A DNA stretch of 23,434 nucleotides from Thermoplasmatota archaeon (GTDB lineage: Archaea > Thermoplasmatota > E2 > JACPAO01 > JAHFTW01). Positions 1,469 through 17,639 of this stretch are shown here, piece after piece. Position 1 is the first letter of the stretch. Each line of letters begins with the position of its first letter. The stretch spans positions 1-23,434 of the forward strand of contig JBFJYU010000012.1 of NCBI GenBank assembly GCA_041622435.1, read 5' to 3'. A program made the position numbers and the translations under genes. The notes beneath the pieces were generated by a model. The model saw nothing but the letters and a program-made list of their open reading frames with translations, did not search any database and was not told where the DNA came from.

Positions 1469-1701
1469 GGCGAAAACCCAGCGGGCCGTCAGGCCCAAAC
1501 GAGTTTCGTTCACAGGGGCGGTTAAGGGTTCGCATGGCGCTCCTGGCGGGCCGGTCCTTACGGCTGTGCCAGCATAAGGCACTTCAAGCAGGAGACCTAG
1601 CAGGGTTTGAGCGCCTACCCGGAGAGCCCACCTGTTGGGCACGCCCCCGAGCTCTCCGCGTGACCGCCTCCCCCGCAAGGGGGGCACAGCACATCGATCC
1701 C

Positions 1702-3087
1702 ATGCAGTCTCTTGCCAAGCCCACGACGCCCGCCACGGTTTCCTACAAACCGTTTGACCTGCGGAACTTCCGCTCGATACCGCAGGTGAAGGAGCGGTTG
1801 TCCGAGGCCGACATGTTCGAAATCGAGGTCGTCGGACACGTCTTTCCCTTCAAGACGAACAATTACGTCATCGACGAATTGATCGACTGGGAAAACGTTC
1901 CCAACGACCCGATGTTTGCACTGACTTTTCCTCAGCGTAGAATGCTCCGGGAAAGCCATTACAACCGTATGGCCGAAGCCATGCGGGAGCGCCCCGACGA
2001 CGCCCAGTACCTGCTGGATGTCGCCAACGAGATTCGGCACCAGTTGAACCCGCATCCGGCCGGCCAACTGGAGCACAACGTCCCCGAATTGTACGGCGAG
2101 CCGCTTGAGGGAATGCAGCACAAGTACAACGAGACGGTGCTCTTTTTCCCCAGCCAGGCACAAACCTGCCACGCCTACTGCACCTTTTGTTTCCGCTGGC
2201 CGCAATTTGTCGGCCTTGACGATTTGAAGTTCCAGACGAAGGAAATTGAGAACCTCATTTGTTACCTCGAGGAACATCCCGAAGTGTCAGATATCCTGTT
2301 CACCGGTGGGGACCCCATGGTGATGGGGCCTCGCCTGATTCGCACCTACCTCGGCGCAATTACGGAGGCGCGCCACGCGGGGCGAATTCCCAACATCTCC
2401 ACCATTCGCATCGGTTCCAAGAGTCTGACCTACTGGCCGTACAAGTACGTCACAGACGCCGGCGCGGACGAGGTCCTTGACACGTTCCGTGATGTGGTTG
2501 ACAGCGGCATCCACCTGGCTTTTATGGCGCACTTCAACCACCCCGTGGAGTTGTCGACGCCCGTCGCTGTCGAGGCGATCCGTCGCATCCGCGATACGGG
2601 CGCCCAGATTCGCAGCCAGACGCCGCTGTTGCGCAACATCAACGCTGACCCGGAAGTGTGGGCCGCCAAGTGGCGCCGCGAGGTCGAGTTGGGCGTCATC
2701 CCGTACTACATGTTCGTTGTCCGTGACACCGGCGCGCAGCATCACTTTGGTGTTCCGCTCGTCGAGGCGCACGACATTTTCAGGAAGGCGTACCAGAAGG
2801 TCAGCGGGCTGGCGCGCACCGTGCGCGGGCCGTCCATGAGCGCCGACCCCGGCAAGGTCGAAGTCCTTGGGCCGACCGTTGTGGCCGGCCGGAAGGTGCT
2901 GGCGCTGCGGATGCTTCAGGGTCGCAACCCGGACTGGGTCGCGCGGCCGTTCTTTGCCGAGTACGACGAGGACGCCTTGTGGCTGGATGAGTTGAAGCCC
3001 GCGTTCGAGTCGCGGTTTTTCTTCGAGCCCGAGATGGCCAAGCTGGATGCCCCCGAGGCGGACGGCGCCGCGGCCGCCCCTGCATAG
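1702..3087 (+). CDS. KamA-family radical SAM protein (lysine 2,3-aminomutase-like aminomutase), ~461 aa
   Basis: ORF 1534..3087 trimmed to the ATG at 1702. CHAYCTFCFRW is the CxxxCxxC radical-SAM cluster motif in KamA context, and LFTGGDP corresponds to the KamA PLP/SAM region. The VIPYYMF and NHP motifs resemble lysine 2,3-aminomutase. The exact substrate (lysine, glutamate, beta-lysine or other) cannot be read from sequence. Confidence 0.8.
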   Translation: MQSLAKPTTPATVSYKPFDLRNFRSIPQVKERLSEADMFEIEVVGHVFPFKTNNYVIDELIDWENVPNDPMFALTFPQRRMLRESHYNRMAEAMRERPDDAQYLLDVANEIRHQLNPHPAGQLEHNVPELYGEPLEGMQHKYNETVLFFPSQAQTCHAYCTFCFRWPQFVGLDDLKFQTKEIENLICYLEEHPEVSDILFTGGDPMVMGPRLIRTYLGAITEARHAGRIPNISTIRIGSKSLTYWPYKYVTDAGADEVLDTFRDVVDSGIHLAFMAHFNHPVELSTPVAVEAIRRIRDTGAQIRSQTPLLRNINADPEVWAAKWRREVELGVIPYYMFVVRDTGAQHHFGVPLVEAHDIFRKAYQKVSGLARTVRGPSMSADPGKVEVLGPTVVAGRKVLALRMLQGRNPDWVARPFFAEYDEDALWLDELKPAFESRFFFEPEMAKLDAPEADGAAAAPA

Positions 3088-3950: not shown

Positions 3951-5399
3951 ATGAAGGCCGTCGAGATCGAACCGATGCTGTTGGGGCACGATTGGAGCGC
4001 CGGCTCCGGGGGCGACGCACAGGACGTGATCGATCCTGCCACCGGGCAAGTCCTGGCGCGGGTGCCCCGAGCCAACGCCGACGACGCCGCGGCCGCCGTG
4101 GCATCGAGCCGCGAAGCGTGGGGGCCGTGGGCCCGGTCGGACCCGGCCGAGCGCGGCCGCATCCTGCACCGTCTGGCAGGGCTCACGCGCCAACACGCCA
4201 AGGATCTGGCGCTCCTGGAGAGCCGCAACAACGGCAAGACCATCCGCGAAGCGGCGGGCGATGTGGCTTTCGCCGCCTGGACGCTGGAGTATTTTGCCGG
4301 CTGGGCGGACAAGATCCACGGTGAAACGATCCCGGTGCCCGGCGACCGGCTTGGGTACACGCTGCGCCAAAGCCTCGGTGTCACGGCCCACATCAGCCCG
4401 TGGAACTATCCTTTGCAACTCGCCGTGCGTTCCCTTGCGCCGGCGCTGGCCGCTGGCTGCACGGTGGTCGCCAAGCCAGCCGAGCAGACGCCGCTCAGCC
4501 TGCTGCGCTGGGCCCGCCTGGCCCAGGAGGCCGGCGTCCCGGAGGGCGTCCTCCAGGTCATCACGGGAGACGGCCCGGTCGTCGGCGACGCGCTGGCGCG
4601 CAACCCGGACGTGGCGGGAATCAGCTTTACGGGCGGCATCGAGGCCGGCCAATCGGTCATGCGCGCCGCAGCCGACCACGTGGCTCCCCTGGCCCTTGAG
4701 CTCGGCGGCAAGGGCGCCAACATCGTGTTCCCCGACGCGAACCTGAAGCGCGCGGCCAAGGGCGTGTGCTTCGGGGTCTTCATGAACGCGGGCCAGATGT
4801 GCTGGGCCGGCAGCCGCCTGCTCGTGCACGAGGACATCCACGACGACGTGGTGGCGTCCGTGGCGGCCGAGGCGGCCAAATGGAAGATCGGACCGGGCCA
4901 GGAGGAAGGCGTGCGCGTGGGCAGCCTGATCAGCCAGGACCACCAGGCGCACGTGCAGGGATTCATCGACCGGGCCGTCGATGCCGGGGCGCGGGTCGTC
5001 ACGGGCGGCGGGGCCCCAGGCGACGCGGCCATGGCTGACGGCGCGTTCTTGCAACCCACGGTGCTGGCGGACGTGAAGGCGACCCACGAGGTTGCTCGCA
5101 ACGAAGTGTTCGGGCCGGTCTTGGCGGTGCTGCCGTTCGCCGACGAGGAGGAGGCGCTGCGCGTCGCCAACGGCGTGGATTATGGCCTGATGAATGGCGT
5201 GTGGACCAACGACCTGGGCCGCGCGCACCGCATGGCGCGGGACCTGGAGGCGGGCATGATCAGTATCAACGAGTTCCCGGTGACCTTCCCCCAGACGCCG
5301 TTTGCCGGTTGGAAGCGCAGCGGCTTTGGCGTGGAGCAGGGGCGCCACGCGATGGATTTCTACACCCACGTCAAGAACGTGAACGTCAACCTGGGGTAG
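3951..5399 (+). CDS. NAD(P)-dependent aldehyde dehydrogenase (ALDH superfamily), 482 aa
   Basis: ORF 3783..5399 trimmed to the ATG at 3951 (MKAVEIEP...). The catalytic Glu motif ELGGKGANIVF and catalytic Cys motif FMNAGQMCWAGSRLLVHE are present, as is the GxGxxG-like FTGGIEAGQ. The stop at 5397..5399 is 3 nt before the next start. Confidence 0.85.
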   Translation: MKAVEIEPMLLGHDWSAGSGGDAQDVIDPATGQVLARVPRANADDAAAAVASSREAWGPWARSDPAERGRILHRLAGLTRQHAKDLALLESRNNGKTIREAAGDVAFAAWTLEYFAGWADKIHGETIPVPGDRLGYTLRQSLGVTAHISPWNYPLQLAVRSLAPALAAGCTVVAKPAEQTPLSLLRWARLAQEAGVPEGVLQVITGDGPVVGDALARNPDVAGISFTGGIEAGQSVMRAAADHVAPLALELGGKGANIVFPDANLKRAAKGVCFGVFMNAGQMCWAGSRLLVHEDIHDDVVASVAAEAAKWKIGPGQEEGVRVGSLISQDHQAHVQGFIDRAVDAGARVVTGGGAPGDAAMADGAFLQPTVLADVKATHEVARNEVFGPVLAVLPFADEEEALRVANGVDYGLMNGVWTNDLGRAHRMARDLEAGMISINEFPVTFPQTPFAGWKRSGFGVEQGRHAMDFYTHVKNVNVNLG

Positions 5400-5402
5400 T
5401 CC

Positions 5403-6209
5403 ATGCCGGACTCTCCTGCCCGTCCGGCCCGGTTGCTTCGCGTCGAGCGCCACGACGGCGGCGTCGCCGTTGCCACGTTCGAGGGCGCCGAGTCCATGAA
5501 CGCGTTCGATCCGGAAACGTTGGGCGCGTTGCGGGTGACGCTCCAGGCACTGCTGGACGACCCCGATGTACGAGCCATCGTTCTAACCGGCTCCGACGGC
5601 GTCTTCTGCGCGGGCGCGGACATCCGGGAGTTCCAGCGCTCCATCCAGGCCGGCACCACGACGGCCTTTGTCCTGGCTGCGACCGAGGAACTGCACGAGC
5701 TCCTGCTGGCCATCTGGCGCAGCGATACCGTGTTCGTCGCTGCTGTCAACGGCGCCGCCGCCGGCGGCGGGCTGGGCCTGGCGCTCGTCGCCGACTACCG
5801 GGTCGCGAGCCCGGGCGCCCGGCTGGCCGCCAGCTACTTCCGACTCGGCCTCTGCCCCGATGGCGGGTCGACGTGGCTGCTGCCGCGGCTCATCGGCACG
5901 CAGCGAGCCAAGCGCTTCTTCTTCGACAACGAGGTCATGGGCGCCGACGAGGCCCTTGCGACGGGGGCCGTTGATGAGGTGACGTCGTCCGAGCACCTCT
6001 TGGAGCGTGCTGTCGCCGTCGCCACCAAATGGGGCGCCTGGTCGGCGGCCAGCCGCGGCTCAACCAAGCGGCTGCTCTCCATGCAGGCCGGTGACTTCGC
6101 GGCCCAACTCGACGCCGAGCGGGGCTTGATCACGTCCTCGGCCGCGTCGGCAGCCTTCGCCGAGGGCGTCGCCGCCTTCCTTGAGAAACGCGAACCCCAC
6201 TTCCCCTGA
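5403..6209 (+). CDS. Enoyl-CoA hydratase/isomerase (crotonase superfamily), 268 aa
   Basis: Crotonase-fold motifs are present: VLTGSDGVFCAGADIREF and the oxyanion-hole region AAVNGAAAGGGLGLALVADYRV. The gene is tightly adjacent to the ALDH gene with a 3-nt gap, implying an operon. Confidence 0.8.
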   Translation: MPDSPARPARLLRVERHDGGVAVATFEGAESMNAFDPETLGALRVTLQALLDDPDVRAIVLTGSDGVFCAGADIREFQRSIQAGTTTAFVLAATEELHELLLAIWRSDTVFVAAVNGAAAGGGLGLALVADYRVASPGARLAASYFRLGLCPDGGSTWLLPRLIGTQRAKRFFFDNEVMGADEALATGAVDEVTSSEHLLERAVAVATKWGAWSAASRGSTKRLLSMQAGDFAAQLDAERGLITSSAASAAFAEGVAAFLEKREPHFP

Positions 6210-6223
6210 CCGCGTCGACAGCG

Positions 6224-6288
6224 GCCACGGCGCCAGCCCGCCACGCCAGCCCGCCACGCCAGCCCGCCACGCCAGCCCGCCACGCCAG
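6224..6288. repeat. Intergenic tandem direct repeat, 13-bp unit CGCCAGCCCGCCA x ~4.4 perfect copies, plus a degenerate leading copy
   Basis: Read directly from the sequence: cgccagcccgcca repeats at 6231, 6244, 6257 and 6270, then cgccag. It lies between the crotonase stop (6209) and the lipoprotein gene start (6341). The unit length is not a multiple of 3. Confidence 0.9.
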
Positions 6289-6340
6289 GTTTCACGGAGA
6301 CCCCACAACCTTGATTGGCGCCCCGGCGTCCCACGTCGGC

Positions 6341-7387
6341 ATGAAGCTGGTTGGCCTTGCTCTCCTGATCCTGATGATGGCGACCGTCGCCGGATGCCTG
6401 AATGACTCCAGCGCGCCCGAGGATGCCGCAGAGGACCCGCAGCCGGGCCTTCGATTCCTTGTCATCGGCGACCAGGGCACCGGCGGACCGGACCAGGCCA
6501 AGGTGGCCGAGGCGATGGCCCAGGTGTGTGAGAAGCGCGGCTGCGACTTCGTGATCACCAACGGCGACAACATCTACGAAGCCGGCGTGGACGGCCCGGA
6601 TGACCCGCGCTTCGAGCGCCAGTTCGAGGAGCCCTACTCCGGCATGGACCTGCCCTTCTACCTGACGCTCGGCAACCACGACAACGACATGACCCCCGTC
6701 CACGCGGCCGCCGACACAGACGCCGGCGGCGGGCTCGGCGTCTGGGGCGCCGCCGGCGACCACCAGGTCGCCTACACGTTCCGTGAAGACCGCACGAGCG
6801 ACAAGTGGAACATGCCTGCGCGCTACTACACGTTCAGCCTTGCTGGCGCCGATGGCACGTCGGCCCAGTTCATCGCCCTGGACACGTCGCCGTTCCTGTG
6901 GGACGGCATGCCGCCCCTGTACGATGACATGCTCGTCGAGGACCAGATCGCGTGGGCCACCGAGACGGTCGGCGAACCCAACGGCACGTGGCGCTTCAGC
7001 TTCGGCCACCACCCTTACCGCTCCAACGGCCAGCACAACGACGCCGGCAGCTACGACGGGTTTACCACGGGCGCGCCCGCCGGCGAGCGGTTGAAGGCGT
7101 TCTACGAGGAGGTGCTGTGCGACCAGATGGACATCTTCTTCGCCGGGCACGACCACGATCTGCAATGGCTGGAGCCGCGCGAGGAGTGCGGCAAGACACA
7201 GTTCATCGTCAGCGGCGCGGCCGGCAAAACGCGCCCGCTGGCCCAGTCCAACAACCCGGCCTATTACGAACAGGGCAGCATCCTGGGCTTCATGTGGGTC
7301 GAGTTGGAGGGCGACACCTTCCGGGGCGCCTTCTTCGACGCCGACGGCCGCATGCTCTATGCCCGCAGCTTCACCCGGGAGGCATGA
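6341..7387 (+). CDS. Calcineurin-like metallophosphoesterase, exported lipoprotein, very acidic
   Basis: The lipoprotein signal MKLVGLALLILMMATVAGC has a lipobox Cys. Metallophosphatase motifs GDQG, GDNIYE, GNHDN and GHDHD are present. The ATG at 6341 is preferred over the TTG at 6311 because it yields a canonical signal peptide. Confidence 0.75.
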   Translation: MKLVGLALLILMMATVAGCLNDSSAPEDAAEDPQPGLRFLVIGDQGTGGPDQAKVAEAMAQVCEKRGCDFVITNGDNIYEAGVDGPDDPRFERQFEEPYSGMDLPFYLTLGNHDNDMTPVHAAADTDAGGGLGVWGAAGDHQVAYTFREDRTSDKWNMPARYYTFSLAGADGTSAQFIALDTSPFLWDGMPPLYDDMLVEDQIAWATETVGEPNGTWRFSFGHHPYRSNGQHNDAGSYDGFTTGAPAGERLKAFYEEVLCDQMDIFFAGHDHDLQWLEPREECGKTQFIVSGAAGKTRPLAQSNNPAYYEQGSILGFMWVELEGDTFRGAFFDADGRMLYARSFTREA

Positions 7388-8063: not shown

Positions 8064-8093
8064 AGGCGGCACGAGCCCAGGCGACCCTCGCCT

Positions 8094-8990
8094 TCAGGCG
8101 CGGGCCAGCAGTTTTTGACTGTTGTCGCGCAGGATTGCCCGCACGGCCTTCGCCGGCAGCCCCAGCCGCAAAAACGCATCGACGTTGGCGCCCATGCCGG
8201 GAACCCGCGGGCCCGGCCAATCGCTGCCCCAGAGGGTGCGGGGAGCCAAGGCTTCCAGGCCCGCGAAGCCGCCAAAGTAATCCGGCAGCCGGCGCGGTGG
8301 GCAGCTCGACAAATCCAGCAAGGCGTTCGGGTAGCGGTCCATCAGATCCAGCGCCGCCGCAGTGCGGTCGGGGCGGCCGCCGTGGGCCAAGATCACCGAC
8401 AGGTCGGGAAAGTCCGCGAGCACGGGTTCGACCAGCGCCGGATCGGCGAAGGCGTTGTCGGCGCCGGGAAAGACGCTGGTTCCCGTGTGGAAGATGACCG
8501 GAAGACCCAGCTCCTGGGCCCGGGCGTAGGCGGCCCCGAGGCGGCCGCCGGCCTGCGTGGCCTCCCGGTGCAGGCCCGGCAGCAAGTGCTGGTGGACCGC
8601 GTGAATCTTCAGCGCCTTGATTCCGAGTTCGACCAGCCGGTCCATGGCCAGGGCACCCTCGCCATCCGTGCGGGGATCGTATCCGCCCACGGCCACGAGC
8701 CGGTCCGGGTCCGCCTGCACGTAGCCGGCGACCCAGTCGTTGACCTCCCAGCCGTAGCCCATGACGATTTTGGCGCTGTAATTGATAAGCCACGCCTGCC
8801 AGATCCCCTCCGCGTCGAGGTGCTCCAGGAAGCCGTCCGGGTCGTGGATGAACCGGGCCATCAGGGGAAACGTCGGATTGGTTTCGATGATTTTGCGCGG
8901 GCCGTCGTTCATCCAGTCGAAGCGGTTGACGTGGACATGGGCGTCCACAACGGGGAATCCGGCGCCTGGGTGGCTCACGGGTTGGGCCAT
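8094..8990 (-). CDS. Amidohydrolase-2 family (TIM-barrel metal-dependent hydrolase/decarboxylase, COG2159-like), ~298 aa
   Basis: ORF 8094..9146 trimmed to the ATG at 8990 (MAQPVSHPGAGFPVVDAHVHV). There is an N-terminal HxH metal-binding motif and later conserved His/Asp residues (ILAHGG, WGSDWP). The start overlaps the stop of the upstream crotonase gene in a TAGCATG junction. A GGAG lies 9 nt upstream. Confidence 0.7.
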   Translation of the reverse strand: MAQPVSHPGAGFPVVDAHVHVNRFDWMNDGPRKIIETNPTFPLMARFIHDPDGFLEHLDAEGIWQAWLINYSAKIVMGYGWEVNDWVAGYVQADPDRLVAVGGYDPRTDGEGALAMDRLVELGIKALKIHAVHQHLLPGLHREATQAGGRLGAAYARAQELGLPVIFHTGTSVFPGADNAFADPALVEPVLADFPDLSVILAHGGRPDRTAAALDLMDRYPNALLDLSSCPPRRLPDYFGGFAGLEALAPRTLWGSDWPGPRVPGMGANVDAFLRLGLPAKAVRAILRDNSQKLLARA

Positions 8991-10702: not shown

Positions 10703-11482
10703 CTACTTGGACATGCCCAACGCCTTGAGCAATTCCACGGGCAACGGAATGACGACGGTCGTCCCCTTGTTGTCCGCGGCATTTTGGAGCGTTTGCAGCA
10801 TCCTCAGGAACATCGCGCCCGGCGACTCGGCCATGACGGCGGAGGCCTCGCCGAGCTTCTGCGCCGCCTGGAATTCGCCCTCCGCGGTGATGACGCGGGC
10901 ACGGCGCTCGCGCTCCGCCTCGGCTTGGCGAGCCATGGCGCGGCGCATGTCGGCGGCCAGTTCGACGTCCTTGATCTCGACCATTCCGACCTTGATGCCC
11001 CAGGGGTCGGTGGCGGCGTCGATGACCTCCTGCAATTTTTTGTTGAGTTTCTCGCGCTCGGCCAACAATTCGTCGAGGTCCGCCTGCCCGACGACGCTGC
11101 GCAGGCTCGTTTGGGCGATCTGGCTCGTGGCAATGCCGAAGTGTTCGACTTCAATGATGGCCCGGATGGGGTCGAGGACGCGGAAGTAGACGACCGCGTT
11201 GACGGATACGGGCACGTTGTCGTGGGTGATGATTTCCTGAACCGGCACGTCATGGGTGATGGTTCGCAGGTCCACCTTCACCATCTTGTCGAGCACCGGG
11301 ATGACGAAGAACAGCCCGGGGCCCTTGGCGCCGAGGAGCCGACCCAGGCGGAAAATGACGCCTCGCTCGTACTCCTTCACGATCTTGATCGCGGAAAACA
11401 GGAAGGCGACCACGAGCAGGACGACCACGATGGCCACGAACGCCGCCGTGGGACTGAGCGCCAGGAGCACGGGAGATGCCAT
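10703..11482 (-). CDS. Stomatin/prohibitin-family SPFH (band 7) membrane protein
   Basis: An N-terminal hydrophobic anchor precedes the SPFH core (GVIFRLGRLLGAKGPGLFFVIPVLDKMVKVDLR, VPVQEIITHDNVPVSVNAVVYFRV) and a C-terminal coiled-coil (RQAEAERERRARVITAEGE). The start is either ATG 11482 or ATG 11515, the full tracked ORF. Confidence 0.85.
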   Translation of the reverse strand: MASPVLLALSPTAAFVAIVVVLLVVAFLFSAIKIVKEYERGVIFRLGRLLGAKGPGLFFVIPVLDKMVKVDLRTITHDVPVQEIITHDNVPVSVNAVVYFRVLDPIRAIIEVEHFGIATSQIAQTSLRSVVGQADLDELLAEREKLNKKLQEVIDAATDPWGIKVGMVEIKDVELAADMRRAMARQAEAERERRARVITAEGEFQAAQKLGEASAVMAESPGAMFLRMLQTLQNAADNKGTTVVIPLPVELLKALGMSK

Positions 11483-11605
11483 GCCCTCCAAAACGATCGG
11501 GTGCTGATGAACCATCTGATCTAGCCCAGCCGCCGTTCAGCGGGACGCGACGCTTTTCCCCACGGGCCCCATGCCGTGCTTGTGACCCGGAATTGGCGGC
11601 TCGCC

Positions 11606-11992
11606 ATGGCACTCGTTGCCCTCGCTCTGGCTCCCGGGGCGGCGGCGCACGGAACCCATGTTGAGGACGGCGCCGGGTACGAGGTTTGGTGGGGGCTGCC
11701 CAGCCACGTTTACATCCACCTGGACGGGGCAACGTTTGCGGCGCTGGCGCAGCCCGGAAGCGGTTGGGCGCTGGCGTGGGACCTCGCGGCACCCATCGAG
11801 GAGGCGCTGGTGCGGGAACACGCGGCGCGGCCGGCGGGAGCGTGGTACTGTGACGGCGACCCCGGATATGTTCAGCCGCTGCCCTGCCGCCTGCGGGTCG
11901 CCATCGAACTGCAGGCCCATGTGAACGCTGGCGACGCCGACGTCCATTTCGATCGCTACTTCGGCTATGCCGGCGCCCTGCCGCTTGGCTAG
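11606..11992 (+). CDS. Small secreted protein of unknown function (~128 aa, 2 Cys)
   Basis: The signal peptide MALVALALAPGAAAHG is followed by a hydrophilic acidic mature region. GC3 is high. No recognisable domain. The start is taken as ATG 11606; the tracked ORF begins at an upstream GTG. Confidence 0.45.
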   Translation: MALVALALAPGAAAHGTHVEDGAGYEVWWGLPSHVYIHLDGATFAALAQPGSGWALAWDLAAPIEEALVREHAARPAGAWYCDGDPGYVQPLPCRLRVAIELQAHVNAGDADVHFDRYFGYAGALPLG

Positions 11993-12040
11993 CCCGGACA
12001 GCCCCAAGAGCCACGACGGGTGCTGTTTTGGATAGTCAGA

Positions 12041-12060
12041 GCCCGTGATATTTTTTTCAT
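12041..12060. promoter_or_regulatory. AT-rich island (GTGATATTTTTTTCATTG) in otherwise ~68% GC DNA; candidate TATA/-10 promoter element or oligo-T terminator
   Basis: A T7 run at 12051..12057 is seen in the sequence. It lies 30-50 nt upstream of the 12089 start and about 50 nt downstream of the 11992 stop. Confidence 0.35.
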
Positions 12061-12088
12061 TGCGGCCTCTCCGGTTCCGAGGTCCAAC

Positions 12089-12394
12089 ATGAACCCACTA
12101 GCCAAGCTGCTGCTGGTCGTGCTGCTGGCGCCGCCGGCGGCCGCCGATCCCGTCGAGGATGCCGAACAGATCACGTACGACTGTCGCACGATGCTGGCGG
12201 TGTATCCGCCCCGCGACCAATGCGTCGTCGAAGGGCGCGGCGTTGCCTGCGTCACGCAACTCGGCCCCACCTACGCACTGCGCTGCTGGCTCGTCGGCGT
12301 CGATTGCCACGGCAGCCACTGGCACGCGACCGTCGGGCCCACGCACGTGGCCGGCCAGAACACATGCCATCATGCCATCCGAGTCACGCCCTAG
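12089..12394 (+). CDS. Small secreted Cys/His-rich protein (~101 aa, 6 Cys, His cluster CHGSHWH...TCHH)
   Basis: GAGGT at 12079..12083 lies 5 nt before ATG 12089. The signal peptide MNPLAKLLLVVLLAPPAAADP has an AAA-D cleavage-site style shared with the next gene. Six Cys fall in about 75 mature residues. Confidence 0.55.
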   Translation: MNPLAKLLLVVLLAPPAAADPVEDAEQITYDCRTMLAVYPPRDQCVVEGRGVACVTQLGPTYALRCWLVGVDCHGSHWHATVGPTHVAGQNTCHHAIRVTP

Positions 12395-12484
12395 ATCCGG
12401 CGGGCGCGCTGCGCCGTGCAACCATTCGAGGTGGGGACCACCACGTTTTAGGACGACGCGCAGTTTGCAAATCGAGGTTGGAAA

Positions 12485-12781
12485 ATGAAAACTGTAGCCC
12501 TTCTGATCCTTGCCACCATGCTCGCCGTACCCGGCGCCGCGGCAGACGAGGACCCGTGCGAAACCGGCTTGGACGGCGCCGCCATTGTCGTCTGCCGCGG
12601 ACCCACCGACGAGGGCATCGGATGCGTCGCCCGTGCTGACGGCTGGACCGGGGCCGGCTGCGGCCTCGTCGGCTTCAACTGTTTCTCCGTGATCTGGGGC
12701 ATCCACAACAACGTGATCAGCGTCGGCGGGTACAGCTCATGCCAGGCCGGTGTGTTCGTCAACGTGCCGCCGACCGGGTGA
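12485..12781 (+). CDS. Small secreted Cys-rich protein (98 aa, 6 Cys)
   Basis: GAGGT at 12474..12478 lies 6 nt before ATG 12485. The signal peptide is MKTVALLILATMLAVPGAAADEDP. Six cysteines are spaced through the ~75-aa mature region, with Gly-rich loops. Confidence 0.6.
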   Translation: MKTVALLILATMLAVPGAAADEDPCETGLDGAAIVVCRGPTDEGIGCVARADGWTGAGCGLVGFNCFSVIWGIHNNVISVGGYSSCQAGVFVNVPPTG

Positions 12782-12887
12782 GTTGAACGGTGATGGCGCG
12801 GCAGGCACCCCGCCATCCGCGACTGTTCACCGGATTCGAGGAAAATCGTCCCAGACGCCTCTTATCATGCCCTGCGGCGTCCCCAAT

Positions 12888-15113
12888 ATGGCCGTGAAAA
12901 TCCCGCGCGTATTGCGTGCCCTCGCCCTCGCTGCCCTGCTGGGAGCAACGGGTGTTGCCGCCGCCGGATTCTTCGGCGACGCCTACGGCTCCGTCCCGGG
13001 AACGTGGGAGTTGCCGCCGCTCGAGTATGGTGCCAGCGGCGAGTACGCCGTACAAGGGTTCAACAGGACGCCCGGCGGCGAATTCGTGCCGATTGGTCCG
13101 ACCGCCCGCGGCCTTGAATACCGCAATCCCGCGCCGGAGTGGATTCTGGACGCTTCGGGGCAGCCCCGGCTGGCTTCCGGCGTCGAATCCACCATTTACG
13201 GCTACGTTGATCGAACCGTCGATTTCGATGACGCCGAGCCCACCTGGGCGCCCAAGTGGACAATGCGGGTCCTGGAGGCCGACGGCGACACGGTCGCGAC
13301 GCAAATCAGCATGGCCTTCGCCTCGGCGGACCGCAACGAATCGCTCGTGGAGGCGGCCGGCCAGCCATTGGTCAGCCACATCGCGCGTGGAACCCGGAAC
13401 GTGACCGCAACCACCTACGCCGACGCGTCCCCGCCGGCGTTCAGGACCTGCGGCCTCGTGAACCCGTACCAGGGCTCGCGGGCCCCCCTCGGCCGGACCG
13501 TCGACCTAGGGAACTGCCTCATTGCGGCGACCCACTCGTTGGGCTCCGCCCAAGGCGGAAATGGCACCGTCGCCGGAGCCCTGCTGGTGGTCGCTCGGCC
13601 CTTCGACATCAAGGGCACCCAGGCCATCGATGGCGAACGCGCCCTTGCCCTGGAAACCTCCACAACGATCCATGGAGCTCGCGTCGTGGTGCGGCTGTGG
13701 CTGACCCAGGAATCCCCCGTGCCGGTGCGGATGGTGACGATTGCGGATGACTGGGCCGTCGTGCTAAGCCTTGCGGGCACCCATCAAGCCGCGCCCGACC
13801 GACCCGGGCCCGCGCCAGAGGCGGCTCCAGGCCTCACGTGGGCGCCGCGCCAGCCGTGGGGCCCAGACGACTCCGATGCCGATCATTTCTTCCCGGCGTC
13901 CCAGGCGTGGGCGGCCGCCATGGAGGACGCCCGGGTTGCCGCCTATTTTGATGCCCACCCGAAGGCCGTCGCCGCGAGGATGCATGGGACCGAACACGAA
14001 TTCACGGACCGCCAGCGCGTGACGTGGCAGTTTCGCGTGACCGATGGCATGGAACCGTTCGTTTTCTCGGTGGATGTGGACGAGCGCCCACTGCTGGGGA
14101 TGTACCTGGAAGAACATACCGGCATCCCGGACCCCGCCTGGGATCCCGACGTGGAAGTCACGATCCACGAGCAGGATTATGCCCCGCTGCCGCCCCCCGA
14201 AACGTTACCCGACGTCCTCCCGACCGTAGGCTCGATCGCGAAGCTTCGGGCATCCTACTCGGGCGTCGATGGAGCCTCGCCCGAATGGGAATTCACGGCG
14301 GAGTGCCAGGACTTGCCCTGCGTGCGTAGCGAGTGGCTGGTTGCCGCGAGCCGCAAGGCGGTCAACCAAACCATCGAGCCCCACGCCACCCAGGGCCACG
14401 TCCAGATCGATACGGCATCGAAATCCAGCACGTTCAACGTCCACGGAGACGGCCACCGCAGCCTTTTCGTTTCGGACGGATCGAGCCGGAGCCAGGTCGC
14501 CCCGTCCCCGCTGGCGGCAGGCCGCGCACCAAGCGCCCCGGCCGCGGAAGCGCCCGCCTGGTCGCCCCCCAGCGTGGCGGTGGCCGCCGCGACAGGCCTC
14601 GCCGCCTTGGTCGCGGGGTTGCTTTACTACCTGTGGCCCCAAGTGAAGGCGGTCGGCATTGGCTTGTTCAGCCGGATGGGTCAGCAGGAAATCGTGGACC
14701 ACCCCGTGCGGCGGCACCTGCTTGCCGCCGTGGAGGCTGATCCTGGCATCCACTTCCAAGAGTTGGTTCGCCGGGTGGGTGTTGGTCGCAGCAGCGTCGA
14801 TCACCACCTGCGCCACTTGGAATCCCGTGGGCTCATCGTGCGCCGACTGACCCAAGGCTACGCGTGCTTCGCTCCAAGGGGGACCGATCGCCGAGTGCTC
14901 GCTGGCGCCGGAGCGATTCGGTCCAGCGGCGCCCGCGCCGTGCTCGCCGCCATCGAGGCCGCCCCCGGTGCCTCCATCGCCGACACCGCTCGGGCAACGG
15001 GCCTGGAGCGGTCCACGGCCCACCACCACGTCCAGCGCCTTACCGAGGCGGGACTGGTGGAGCGCCGCCGGGACGGGCGAGCGGTCCGACTGTGGCGGGT
15101 GCGGCCGGCGTAA
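12888..15113 (+). CDS. Membrane-anchored transcription regulator: signal peptide + ~530-aa acidic extracytoplasmic domain + one TM helix + two C-terminal winged-helix (ArsR/MarR-like) DNA-binding domains (~742 aa)
   Basis: ORF 12750..15113 trimmed to the ATG at 12888 (MAVKIPRVLRALALAALLGATGVAAAG). The TM helix is VAVAAATGLAALVAGLLYYLW near the C-terminal quarter. Two HTH units follow: HFQELVRRVGVGRSSVDHHLRHLESRGLIVRR and SIADTARATGLERSTAHHHVQRLTEAGLVERRRDGRAVRLWRV. The ectodomain has no motif I can recognise. Confidence 0.7.
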   Translation: MAVKIPRVLRALALAALLGATGVAAAGFFGDAYGSVPGTWELPPLEYGASGEYAVQGFNRTPGGEFVPIGPTARGLEYRNPAPEWILDASGQPRLASGVESTIYGYVDRTVDFDDAEPTWAPKWTMRVLEADGDTVATQISMAFASADRNESLVEAAGQPLVSHIARGTRNVTATTYADASPPAFRTCGLVNPYQGSRAPLGRTVDLGNCLIAATHSLGSAQGGNGTVAGALLVVARPFDIKGTQAIDGERALALETSTTIHGARVVVRLWLTQESPVPVRMVTIADDWAVVLSLAGTHQAAPDRPGPAPEAAPGLTWAPRQPWGPDDSDADHFFPASQAWAAAMEDARVAAYFDAHPKAVAARMHGTEHEFTDRQRVTWQFRVTDGMEPFVFSVDVDERPLLGMYLEEHTGIPDPAWDPDVEVTIHEQDYAPLPPPETLPDVLPTVGSIAKLRASYSGVDGASPEWEFTAECQDLPCVRSEWLVAASRKAVNQTIEPHATQGHVQIDTASKSSTFNVHGDGHRSLFVSDGSSRSQVAPSPLAAGRAPSAPAAEAPAWSPPSVAVAAATGLAALVAGLLYYLWPQVKAVGIGLFSRMGQQEIVDHPVRRHLLAAVEADPGIHFQELVRRVGVGRSSVDHHLRHLESRGLIVRRLTQGYACFAPRGTDRRVLAGAGAIRSSGARAVLAAIEAAPGASIADTARATGLERSTAHHHVQRLTEAGLVERRRDGRAVRLWRVRPA

Positions 15114-15139
15114 AGGGGGACGCAAACCGCCGCGCCGTG

Positions 15140-15446
15140 CTTCGCGCTAAGCGCTCAGCACGTGTTGCACGGCTCGGAGAACCTTCCACTCACCCTTCGC
15201 ACGGCCCTGCAAGCAGGGCCGCAGTCCCGCCGACTGGGCGTTCTTGCCTTCGCGGTCCGCTTCTCGTGGCTATGCGCCGAGAACCTTTTGGACCGCTCGC
15301 AAGACCTTCCACTCGTCCCTCATACGGCCGTGCAAGCACGGCCCCAGTCGCGACGAGTTCACGCGCTGGGCGCCCAGCGTGACGCCGGTTACGCCGACAT
15401 CACGCGCTGAACAGCACGCAAGACCTTCCACTCGTCGGGCATATAG
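15140..15446. repeat. Degenerate direct-repeat array of ~120-bp period (3 units). Each ~65-75-bp repeat core carries a 7-bp-stem/4-nt-loop hairpin. The third unit is the 3' coding end of the E1-beta gene.
   Basis: accttccactc occurs at 15181, 15304 and 15423. Core A (15176..15240) and core B (15298..15372) are ~80% identical. Their hairpins are ggccCtg-caag-caGggcc (15203..15220) and ggccGtg-caag-caCggcc (15326..15343), differing by a compensatory pair. A perfect 16-bp palindrome cgctgggcgcccagcg sits at 15364..15379. The 20 nt cgcaagaccttccactcgtc are shared exactly between unit B and the E1-beta C-terminal codons (DEWKVLR). Confidence 0.75.
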
Positions 15447-16375
15447 TAGTGCTCCCGCGCGAACAGCGGCGTGTGCACGTCGGGGGCGGTGACCCGCTCC
15501 ACGGGGGCCTCGAGGTGGTAGAACGCGTCCTCGTTGATGCGGGCGACGATCTCGCCGGCAAGGCCGCCGGTGCGTGGTGCTTCCTGGACGATGACACAGC
15601 GGCCGGTTCGCTTGACCGACTCGATGATCGGTTCGGAATCCATCGGGCTGACGGTCTGCAAATCCAGCACGTCGGCCTCGATGCCGTTGTCCGCCAGGGT
15701 GGCCGCGGCCTTGTCGGTGAAATACCGCATCGCGCCCCAGGTCACCAGGGTGAGGTCGTCGCCTTCGCGCACGTGGGCGGTCTTGCGCAGATCCGGCACC
15801 TCGTCGTCCACGGGGACGTCCTCACGATACTTCCGGTACAGGAACTTGGGCTCCATGAAAATCACGGGGTCGTCGCTGCGAATGGACGCCTTGAGCAGCC
15901 CACGGGCGTTGCGAGGCGTGCTCGGCATGACGACCGTCAGGCCCGGCGTGTGGGCCCAGTACATCTCGCGGCTCTCCGAGTGGTGCTCCAGGGCGTGCAC
16001 GCCGGCGCCGTAGGGCATGTGGATCACCATGGGCAGCTTGAAGCCGCCCTGGGTGCGCTTGAGCATGCGCGCCATATGGCTCTCGTAATGGTGGTGAGCC
16101 TGGTAGCTGAAGCCACTGAACTGCATCTCCCCGATGGGGCGCATGCCGGCCATGGCGAGGCCAGTGGCCGCACCCGCGATGCCCATCTCGCTGATCGGCG
16201 TGTCCACGACGCGGTGCTTGCCGTACTTGTCCATGAGCCCGTCGGTGAGACGGAAGATACCGCCGTCCTTGCCCACGTCCTCGCCTAGGATCATGACCTT
16301 CTCGTCGCGCTCCATTTCCTCATCGAACGCCCGGTTCATGGCCTCGATCAGGTTGACGCTGATGGTTTCGCCCAT
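15389..16375 (-). CDS. 2-oxoacid dehydrogenase E1 component beta subunit (TPP-dependent; pyruvate/branched-chain/acetoin-type), ~328 aa
   Basis: The transketolase-like beta-subunit sequence is present (ILGEDVGKDGGIFRLTDGL, DTPISEMGIAGAATGLAMAGMRPI, C-terminal transketolase C domain). ATG 16375 shares one base with the TGA of the alpha gene (TGATG). GGAGGTG lies 6 nt upstream (cacctcc at 16381..16387 on the plus strand). Confidence 0.9.
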   Translation of the reverse strand: MGETISVNLIEAMNRAFDEEMERDEKVMILGEDVGKDGGIFRLTDGLMDKYGKHRVVDTPISEMGIAGAATGLAMAGMRPIGEMQFSGFSYQAHHHYESHMARMLKRTQGGFKLPMVIHMPYGAGVHALEHHSESREMYWAHTPGLTVVMPSTPRNARGLLKASIRSDDPVIFMEPKFLYRKYREDVPVDDEVPDLRKTAHVREGDDLTLVTWGAMRYFTDKAAATLADNGIEADVLDLQTVSPMDSEPIIESVKRTGRCVIVQEAPRTGGLAGEIVARINEDAFYHLEAPVERVTAPDVHTPLFAREHYYMPDEWKVLRAVQRVMSA

Positions 16376-17556
16376 CACCGCACCTCCCCGGCGCCGGCCA
16401 GGTGGCTTTGCACGGAGCTGCTCAACTCGTACTGGGCGTCATGGAGTTCGGACTCGGTCTTGGCGCCGCCGACCGCCTCGAAGTGCTCCAGGAGCTCGCG
16501 CTTCTGGCGCTCCAGGTACGGGGGATTCTCGATGTACGCGTAGTCGAACATGCCCGACACGTCGTGCTCCAATTCGAGCTTGCGCGCCTCGAACGCCGTG
16601 ACGGCGTCGTCGAGCTGCTGCTTGATGCGCTCCTCGAGGTCCGCCTCCTTGGTCTTGTTCCAGAGGCGCTTGGAGGTGAGGTAGGAGCGCATTCGGGTGA
16701 TGGGGTCCTTGGGCACCCAGGCCTCCTCCTCTTCCTTTGTGCGGTACTTCGAGGGGTCGTCCGCCGTCGTATGGAACATCTTGCGGAACGTGACCGCCTC
16801 AATGAGGTAGGGGCCCTTGCCGCTGCGGGCGTGCTCAACGGCCTCGCGGGTCGCGTGGATCACGGCGAGGATGTCGTTGCCATCCACCTGGACGCCGGGA
16901 ATGCCGTACGCGATGGCCTTCTGGGCGATGGTTTCGCTCTTGGTCTGGTGGGCGCGCGGGACACTGATGGCCCACTGGTTGTTCTGGATGAAGAACACCA
17001 CGGGCGCCTTGAACACGGCGGCCATGTTGATGGCCTCGTGGAAGTCGCCCTCGCTCGTGCTGCCGTCGCCACCATACGTGATGGCCACGGCGTCCTCGCC
17101 CTGCAACCGGCTGCCCCAGGCGACGCCCAAGGCGTGGGTGTACTGCGTCCCGATGGGGATGCAGATGGGCAGGTTGCGGTCCGCCGCGTCCATCTCGACG
17201 CCTTCCTCGAAGCCGGCGACGTAGAGCAGATCCAGCATCAGGTCGGCGCCGCGCCACATGGCACAGGCGGACTCGCGGAAACTCGGCACAAACCAGTCCG
17301 TGTCACGGACGCAGTAGATGCTGCCGAGCTGCGCGGCCTCCTGGCCGGCGGCAGGCGCGAACGTGCCGATGCGGCCCTGGCGCTGGAGCTTGGCGCGCCG
17401 CTCATCGAACGCACGGCTGAGCATCATGGTCTCGTAAAGCCGGACCAGATCCTCCTTGGGAACCTTCGGCTCGAGCTTCTTGTCCACGTTGCCGTCCTGA
17501 TCCAGGATGGAGACGTGCTGAATGGTCTGGGATTGATGGGCCGTAGTGATCGGCAT
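16375..17556 (-). CDS. 2-oxoacid dehydrogenase E1 component alpha subunit (TPP-binding), ~393 aa
   Basis: ORF 16375..17619 trimmed to the ATG at 17556, which is preceded by GGGAGGA (17563..17569, minus strand) with a 6-nt spacer. The TPP motif region is GDGSTSEGDFHEAINMAAVFKAPVVFFIQNN, and the C-terminal tail resembles PdhA-type alpha subunits. Confidence 0.9.
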   Translation of the reverse strand: MPITTAHQSQTIQHVSILDQDGNVDKKLEPKVPKEDLVRLYETMMLSRAFDERRAKLQRQGRIGTFAPAAGQEAAQLGSIYCVRDTDWFVPSFRESACAMWRGADLMLDLLYVAGFEEGVEMDAADRNLPICIPIGTQYTHALGVAWGSRLQGEDAVAITYGGDGSTSEGDFHEAINMAAVFKAPVVFFIQNNQWAISVPRAHQTKSETIAQKAIAYGIPGVQVDGNDILAVIHATREAVEHARSGKGPYLIEAVTFRKMFHTTADDPSKYRTKEEEEAWVPKDPITRMRSYLTSKRLWNKTKEADLEERIKQQLDDAVTAFEARKLELEHDVSGMFDYAYIENPPYLERQKRELLEHFEAVGGAKTESELHDAQYELSSSVQSHLAGAGEVR

Positions 17557-17617
17557 GACGATTCCTCCCGAGGGATGGTAAGCGGGCGGCGCGAGCCCGT
17601 CCTCATTCTTAAGGGGC

Positions 17618-17639
17618 ACCCGGACCAGCCGGTCCGGGT
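17618..17639. terminator. Perfect 9-bp-stem/4-nt-loop GC-rich hairpin between the NfeD stop and the E1-alpha start; candidate terminator/attenuator
   Basis: acccggacc-agcc-ggtccgggt was read directly. It lies about 25 nt downstream of the NfeD stop (17664) on the minus strand. No U-tract follows on either strand, so its terminator function is uncertain. Confidence 0.35.

Follow-up and report, generated by a model that had tools for sequence, protein, structure and literature searches.

Hairpin-bounded copies of the E1-beta gene tail stacked behind the gene, with related tail duplications at folD and rps7, in Thermoplasmatota archaea

The repeat array at positions 15140 to 15446 of a 23,434-nt stretch from a Thermoplasmatota archaeon (contig JBFJYU010000012.1 of assembly GCA_041622435.1; hereafter the window) is real and non-random. 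It comprises three tail modules, one live (G) and two silent (B and A), stacked at the end of a minus-strand gene, that for the 2-oxoacid dehydrogenase E1 beta subunit (E1-beta). Read on the minus strand, every repeat copy gives the last 15 codons of E1-beta and a stop codon of its own, and modules B and A are complete but untranslated alternative E1-beta tails. Each module runs from X (the 15 codons plus stop) through X' (an inverted copy) to a hairpin, H, and then a GTRYGA flank. The same hairpin stands beside duplicated tails of folD and rps7 in related archaea. Judged by sequence comparison, this appears to be a clade-restricted, hairpin-only form of gene-tail duplication or displacement at three housekeeping genes, with modules conserved well above the neutral level. 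That duplicated tails of housekeeping genes share H points to a small element, or a recombination process acting on gene 3' ends, that has not been described before.

An initial inspection of the letters of this DNA (the sequence-only reading) had placed the motif accttccactc at 15181, 15304 and 15423 with periods of 123 and 119 nt, and the 11-mer indeed has these three starts and spacings. The two cores that it described as similar are 76% identical over 88 nt by repeat search, which also returned a 45-nt family of three copies (76–78% identity, same spacings). Its statements that the third copy is the E1-beta C-terminus (...YYMPDEWKVLRAVQRVMSA, then stop) and matches unit B exactly over 20 nt were both correct: the 20-mer GACGAGTGGAAGGTCTTGCG occurs at 15298-15317 and 15417-15436, with a chance expectation of 0. 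The perfect 16-bp palindrome that it saw in the second spacer lies at 15364-15379. Tandem Repeats Finder did not report the array when run on the window, because the copies are too diverged. An assembly artefact was rejected, as no unit reaches the length of a read or k-mer, the units are 12–30% diverged from one another, and arrays recur in independent assemblies of related loci (window and L001; L019 and L074; L060 and L070).

What the sequence-only reading overlooked is that copies B and A hold complete tails with antisense arms on the minus strand. Each stretch of about 50 nt that it called a non-homologous spacer repeats the codons of the tail before it in inverted, degenerate form (X') and pairs with those codons. 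Its suggestion that the gene 3' end was duplicated, with copies keeping hairpins, was essentially right, each copy being a tail plus stop on the minus strand. The other possibility it raised, that an inserted element contributes the C-terminus, is not supported: E1-beta proteins throughout the family have homologous tails, so the tail here is native rather than donated by an element. The parts of the array are as follows.

15389..16378, minus strand: E1-beta gene (Pfam Transket_pyr and Transketolase_C; product 91% identical to protein P0001); its last 48 nt are the coding arm of module G
15436..15318, minus strand: module G, 119 nt, live (X, X' and H copy 1)
15389..15436, minus strand: X of module G, the live tail, DEWKVLRAVQRVMSA plus TAA; first 20 nt identical to X of module B
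15353..15388, minus strand: X' of module G, an inverted and partly direct tail copy that holds the 16-bp palindrome and pairs with X
15318..15352, minus strand: H copy 1 with flanks, end of module G; core 15326-15343, GGCCGUG-CUUG-CACGGCC; 53.9 bits with the covariance model described below
15317..15195, minus strand: module B, 123 nt, silent (X, X' and H copy 2)
15270..15317, minus strand: X of module B, a silent tail, DEWKVLRAVQKVLGA plus TAG; orthologue of the closest relative's live tail
15230..15269, minus strand: X' of module B, an inverted copy of its X; 92% identical to the L001 copy
15195..15229, minus strand: H copy 2 with flanks, end of module B; core 15203-15220, GGCCCUG-CUUG-CAGGGCC; 57.6 bits
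From 15194, ending near 15125, minus strand: module A, silent and incomplete, shortened by the end of the convergent regulator gene
15147..15194, minus strand: X of module A, a silent tail, GEWKVLRAVQHVLSA plus TAG, its own stop codon kept
15125..15146, minus strand: partial X' of module A (CGCGAAGCACGGCGCGGCGG), truncated on reaching the 3' end of the convergent regulator gene

The silent tails end in ...QKVLGA-stop (module B) and ...QHVLSA-stop (module A), and module boundaries read GGCCGTRYGANG followed directly by GAC, the boundary lying between the two. Module G additionally carries a nested direct-inverted-direct pattern (cagcgcgtgaTGtcgGcg, its inverted copy, cagcgcgtgaACtcgTcg). Pairing of X with X' yields a long hairpin with the stop codon in its loop. 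At the live gene this hairpin is GCGUGAUGUCGG-CGUAA-CCGGCGUCACGC, with a 5-nt loop and a 12-bp stem, a length reached at 0.5% of control positions in the window. None of the 15 other window genes has a stop-spanning hairpin of this size, and we rejected the idea that such hairpins are the ordinary 3'-end design of the organism, since E1-beta alone stands out among the 16 genes. All modules fold into the long hairpin plus H, with shuffle z-scores down to −6.8 for single modules and −10.7 for the array at L001. The sole other window gene to approach the E1-beta value encodes an amidohydrolase, whose stop codon lies inside a 10-bp hairpin with one mismatch (8085-8110, minus strand).

H itself is a 10-bp hairpin with the loop G(CUUG)C; its core measures 18 nt, or 24 nt with the extended stem. 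The two core hairpins in the window (7-bp stem, 4-nt loop) differ by a C:G to G:C swap, just as the sequence-only reading had it. A covariance model built from seven copies has 97% of its stem cells paired, two covarying pairs and a G·U pair present in all seven, so that the covariation proposed as a check is seen across genomes. In about 84 kb of related archaeal loci the model gave nine matches at E<1e-5, every one beside a duplicated gene tail (E1-beta, folD or rps7). One of the nine, at rps7, was not in the set used to build the model; it scored 32 bits, with the same flanks and loop and a compensatory change from U-A to C-G. We also scanned genome, metagenome and viral contig collections with the hairpin pattern GGCCNTGCTTGCANGGCCGT. 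Across these three public collections there were three genuine loci, namely the L001 array and, in each of two related archaeal lineages, the 3' end of folD; the remaining matches were chance occurrences, hairpins of unrelated bacteria. Within the collection of 185,579 species representatives, the L001 and L019 contigs, which belong to two different metagenome-assembled genomes, were the sole Thermoplasmatota matches. The 23-kb window contains just the two array copies of H, and no other window gene has a copy of H or a tail duplicate by the H model and a tail scan. Rfam 15 had no match at E<=1 between 14800 and 15700, scans of viral contigs with the tail and H-flank patterns gave no meaningful match, and blastn of the 307-nt region against plasmid and phage collections gave none. 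A dispersed family of the type of repetitive extragenic palindromes (REP) or miniature inverted-repeat transposable elements (MITE) was rejected, H having been seen beside duplicated tails alone (in the 23-kb window, in the species representatives by pattern and in the 84 kb by model).

Comparison with the closest relative shows how the modules behave. The closest E1-beta, P0001, with 91% amino acid identity, is encoded at locus L001 (GCA_041600695.1); the relatives are Thermoplasmatota archaea. A look-up of the exact window E1-beta protein returned no record. The live tail at L001 is of type B and ends in ...QKVLAA-stop. It is followed by a module G (DEFKVLRAVQRVMSA, then stop), an A-like module (A') whose stop was removed by a 7-nt deletion, and another module G (G2). 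The order is G-B-A in the window versus B-G-A'-G at L001, and the lengths of 119 and 123 nt are equal in both. The modules behave as units: their lengths are kept, but their order is permuted and the gene is fused to another of them. Orthologous modules of the two loci share 88% (G) and 93.5% (B) identity, X' and the stretch before H being 89–92% identical and H with its flank 96%. Four-fold degenerate sites differ at 44% in E1-beta, 36% in E1-alpha and 56% in NfeD, and third codon positions are about 68% identical along E1-beta, with no tract of high identity at the 3' end that would mark recent transfer. Because their identity is far above that of four-fold sites, the silent modules do not appear to be decaying neutrally; they would be either constrained or exchanged more recently than the two genomes split. 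Two tracts indicate active recombination inside the arrays: over their first 20 nt the live window tail and module B are exactly alike, and the two G modules of L001, with the H preceding each, share about 128 nt at about 99% identity.

Arrays are absent from the more distant E1-beta relatives L002, L003, L066, L068 and L069. One of these loci, L003, whose E1-beta is 78% identical in amino acids, has a stop-spanning hairpin (CGGAUUCUgGCCG-CUUAGG-CGGCaAGAAUCCG) at 7040-7100. L001 carries about 1.9 kb (4860-6800) absent from the window, between the array and the orthologue of the regulator gene; because of this extra DNA, the stretch distal to the array is taken to be a rearrangement point. The insert holds a HepT/MNT toxin-antitoxin pair and two small open reading frames (ORFs) of unknown function.

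Duplicated tails at other genes repeat this anatomy. H lies between a live folD tail and a second copy of it at four loci in two non-sister lineages.

L019 5660-5750, minus strand: folD array
L074 3960-4060, plus strand: folD array
L070 2025-2125, plus strand: folD array
L060 1-80, minus strand: folD array

At L019 and L074, folD reads ...KRKMGLLPTF-stop, an inverted arm, H and then MGLLPTF-stop, and all five nucleotide differences between the copies are synonymous. At L060 and L070 the arrangement is ...MGVVPAPPGGA-stop, H and LGVVPTPPGST-stop. Compared with the tails of the six closest relatives, the silent L070 tail (GVVPTPPGST) is in every case nearer than the live one. The closer folD relatives L071 and L073 (82–83% amino acid identity) have no H, and a convergent glutaredoxin gene directly follows their folD. 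A scan for duplicated tails at the peptide level found the rps7 case (L019 2468-2650, minus strand), where the ribosomal protein S7 tail ERVAKSAR-stop is present twice with three differences, all of them at third positions and synonymous. Between these copies are an inverted tail copy and a hairpin, GGGAGCC-CUGC-GGCUCCC; the second copy is followed by the H-like hairpin of 32 bits and then by T-rich terminator runs. Past the second folD tail of L019 (about 5600-5640, minus strand) lies another hairpin (GTGGGCGC..GCGCAC) and then GATGGGGCCGTACTCGGCGTCA, which may be a third, decayed tail copy (about 13 of 21 nt); the H model is silent there.

The tail copies differ mainly at third codon positions. 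Among E1-beta module types, 3 of 15 amino acids are changed by 13–15 nucleotide differences (P<=1e-4 under random placement); at L019, folD shows 0 of 7 amino acids changed with five differences (P = 2e-4) and rps7 0 of 8 with three (P = 0.016). The folD tails of L070, with 4 of 11 amino acids changed and seven differences, look like random placement (P = 0.55). A fairer null supposes that one copy is coding and the other neutral, with about half of the differences nonsynonymous. Under it, the absence of any nonsynonymous change among the eight differences at L019 folD and rps7 has a probability of about 0.004 by our own calculation. Two explanations would fit this third-position bias: the silent tails may have been live until recently, or the silent modules may be structurally frozen while the live copy drifts synonymously.

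Strand-specific features suggest that the modules matter as RNA. In all seven E1-beta modules the sense RNA is 5–15 kcal/mol more stable than the antisense, with 23 versus 13 G·U pairs. CUUG closed by a G-C pair, G(CUUG)C, is a classic extra-stable RNA tetraloop, which the antisense CAAG is not. No sense-strand T run longer than 3 occurs between 15388 and 15114, and at L019 rps7 T-rich runs appear only past the last module. Because oligo-T is missing after the window hairpins and the rps7 terminator lies only past the last module, the arrays are probably transcribed as 3' untranslated region (UTR), and all these features together favour selection on the sense transcript.

We lean towards the reading that the H-bounded tail modules are ORF-less cassettes that enter at the front of the array and are kept as sense 3'-UTR hairpins, with H being copied between genes, although we would not grant it quite an even chance. 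Recombination within the conserved beginning of X (GACGAGTGGAAGGT) would let a cassette enter at, or move to, the front of the array. It would supply a full tail and stop, so that the gene stays intact, and the earlier tail would be displaced downstream. The entire array would be transcribed as 3' UTR, where selection would see the sense-strand hairpins, which would most plausibly protect or define the 3' end of the mRNA. H would be copied between genes by some activity acting in trans. A bolder version, which we regard as possible but doubtful, would make these modules a new archaeal class of ORF-less mobile cassettes that colonise the 3' ends of essential genes, each consisting of a recoded copy of the gene's own tail, an antisense arm and the CUUG hairpin. 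Their enzyme would be provided in trans and might act on folded single strands or RNA, and spare tails could be swapped into the live position.

Several points weigh against this cassette proposal. No recombinase, transposase, reverse transcriptase or endonuclease gene was found near any array by Pfam, NCBIfam and PHROGs searches of about 35 ORFs in the window and related loci, and because of this the mobility of H is purely something we infer. A few unequal crossovers in a longer ancestral array could also have produced the permuted module order, with no cassette mechanism, and the codon-structured divergence could instead mean that the tails were horizontally acquired. The case for a role at the RNA level consists of the G·U bias, the CUUG loop and conservation, and the rps7 array folds better as antisense. 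The sample comprises four independent loci in five to six metagenome-assembled genomes, and no pair of empty and filled sites from close strains was found.

Horizontal acquisition is the rival that we take most seriously, although we consider it unlikely. Diverged tails would have arrived with H and replaced the native tail in frame by homing-like or homology-facilitated recombination, leaving the native tail as a downstream relic and the element reduced to a hairpin. Differences between live and silent copies that are solely synonymous are expected of diverged functional alleles, and several features of the loci fit as well: the silent L070 folD tail is the one nearer to its relatives' tails, the folD insertion occupies the same codon in two non-sister lineages while the closer L071 and L073 lack it, the DNA downstream of the arrays is variable, and an analogue has been documented (PMC3630166). 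However, merely 28–75 nt, with no ORF or element body, separate the copies, and no donor lineage was identified. The silent non-coding arms, unlike relics, are 89–96% conserved against a neutral divergence of 44%, and the X' arms match their own X, with a direct-inverted-direct nesting inside one module that argues for local templating. Replication template switching at GC-rich hairpins, by fold-back or strand switch, would account for the copies as functionless X X' X products that persist by chance. Two switches leave precisely this signature, the succession of X, X', hairpin and X; module G holds the pattern again in nested form, and the first hairpin of the rps7 array is a different one. 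Switching leaves unexplained a 35-nt identical H at unrelated genes, the conservation of silent modules far above four-fold sites and the shortage of first- and second-position changes in silent tails, and we hold it to be improbable.

We give little weight to the remaining readings. Programmed use of the tails, whether by phase-variation-like switching of the C-terminus, by translational bypassing or by RNA processing that links a downstream tail to the gene body, might be supposed from the intact frames and stops of all three window tails, the different live module in the sister genome and the stop codon in a hairpin loop, a feature of known bypass take-off sites. It would bring no gain, the E1-beta tails differing by three conservative residues and the folD and rps7 copies encoding identical peptides; moreover, the A' stop is lost at L001 and on inspection the exon end and the following tail showed no evident bulge-helix-bulge pairing. 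Because module lengths are 119, 123, 68, 64 and 94 nt, with no consistent frame, in-frame translation of the silent copies is excluded, and we regard programmed use as very improbable. No better is the prospect for independent small RNA genes, iterons for the winged helix-turn-helix (wHTH) regulator, a terminator or attenuator of the convergent genes, or attachment (att) scars of an integrative element, all of which the sequence-only reading had listed. The region is structured, lies between convergent genes and is bordered by variable DNA in relatives. But small RNAs find no Rfam match, and a dispersed small-RNA family is at odds with H having been found at duplicated gene tails only; the L001 array is kept with the regulator about 2 kb away, and folD and rps7 have H but no such regulator, which speaks against iterons; terminators lack oligo-T behind the hairpins; and no integrase and no room for an element between copies were found for att scars. 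The negative viral, plasmid and phage searches count against this group as well. As for the plus-strand ORF of 82 amino acids across the array (15162-15410), the open frame with its internal repeat exists as the sequence-only reading said, but the chance that it is a real gene is practically nil. Its codons differ from those of orthologous modules by 10 nonsynonymous versus 4 synonymous changes, its stop is not conserved and the module order is permuted in the relative. The argument drawn from nonsynonymous compensatory changes in it used the wrong strand and frame, the relevant one being that of the minus-strand tail. We also dropped a diversity-generating retroelement (DGR), a CRISPR-like array, a tRNA-fragment att site, a C/D-box small RNA, a bulge-helix-bulge intron and stop-codon readthrough, for want of a reverse transcriptase, adenine bias, matching motifs or a consistent frame.

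No prior description in archaea was found in the literature. Mobile endonuclease ORFs make C-terminal duplications in fungal mitochondria, at atp6 of Allomyces and at atp6, atp9, cox2 and nad3 of Glomus (PMC3630166), and these are the closest documented parallel. They share with the arrays an in-frame replacement tail with a second copy just downstream, copies diverged in nucleotides but similar in protein, and housekeeping targets. In the fungi, however, mobility is driven by a homing-endonuclease ORF situated between the copies, whereas the archaeal arrays have 28–75 nt of inverted arm and hairpin in that place and stack up to four modules. Tandem alternative 3' ends with short homology to a main gene, among which recombination can change the one expressed, are also seen in the orphan C-terminal modules of rhs and cdiA. 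Each of those modules is a large toxin domain of distinct function and comes with immunity genes, unlike 15 near-identical codons of a metabolic enzyme without an accompanying gene. Integron cassettes resemble the arrays in being tandem units that end in a folded imperfect palindrome with strand-specific structure, in expressing the first position alone and in differing in order between relatives (G-B-A versus B-G-A'-G for our modules). Integron attC sites are 57–141 nt long, with R and L boxes and a GTTRRRY core, and the platform comprises IntI, attI and Pc. Here no such platform was found, H measures 18–24 nt, the boundaries lack GTTRRRY and what is carried is a tail rather than a gene.

Short, GC-rich and ORF-less palindromes at gene ends or inside coding regions are also typical of REP and bacterial interspersed mosaic elements (BIME), MITE and Rickettsia palindromic elements. 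Such elements are dispersed in tens to hundreds of copies, whereas H was found beside duplicated gene tails only and on one contig each in two of the species representatives. The inverted triplications known as DUP-TRP/INV-DUP have the same direct-inverted-direct order (X X' X) with junctions at hairpins, but predict neither a shared junction hairpin at unrelated genes nor long-term conservation. DGRs, with their pairs of variable and template repeats (VR/TR), likewise place a hairpin after the first of two copies of a gene 3' end; here the scanned ORFs contain no RVT domain, the differences are mostly G/C/T third-position exchanges rather than adenine-specific ones, and the targets are housekeeping genes. 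Duplication of att sites by integrative elements leaves the gene intact through the upstream repeat, just as the live tail here is full length, but our copies are 119–123 nt apart from start to start, with no ORF between them and no integrase.

Two neighbouring genes frame the locus.

16375-17619, minus strand: E1-alpha gene
12750..15113, plus strand: convergent gene whose membrane-anchored product carries two wHTH domains at its C-terminus; the gene borders the array and lies outside it

The product of the convergent gene has an N-terminal signal or transmembrane segment, about 550 residues without a Pfam match, a second transmembrane segment and the two winged-helix domains, and looks like a membrane-anchored transcription regulator. 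Elsewhere in the window, the roughly 1.5 kb between a Band7 gene and the regulator (11250-12706) holds ORFs with no Pfam, NCBIfam or PHROGs match; the syntenic stretch of L003 has a 119-codon ORF and a redoxin gene instead. A 13-nt unit, CGCCAGCCCGCCA, is repeated four times in perfect tandem at 6231-6282, between genes for an enoyl-CoA hydratase and a metallophosphoesterase. A plus-strand ORF of 517 amino acids (1534-3087) has no Pfam match at E<=1e-5 and matches NCBIfam models of KamA-family (lysine 2,3-aminomutase-like) radical SAM proteins below their curated cut-offs.

For annotation, the arrays are a warning that short intergenic repeats after a gene may be copies of its own coding end, and that antisense ORFs over them are artefacts. 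If the modules work solely as RNA, they would represent a 3' UTR of unusual design, one that pairs with the final codons and sets the stop codon in a hairpin loop. If H-linked modules are mobile or recombining, a tiny element without genes would sit in essential genes without harming them, a strategy known from organellar homing endonuclease genes and for which we found no description in archaeal chromosomes, nor any of a version pared down to a hairpin. The arrays would also record past gene tails and recombination among related uncultivated Thermoplasmatota.

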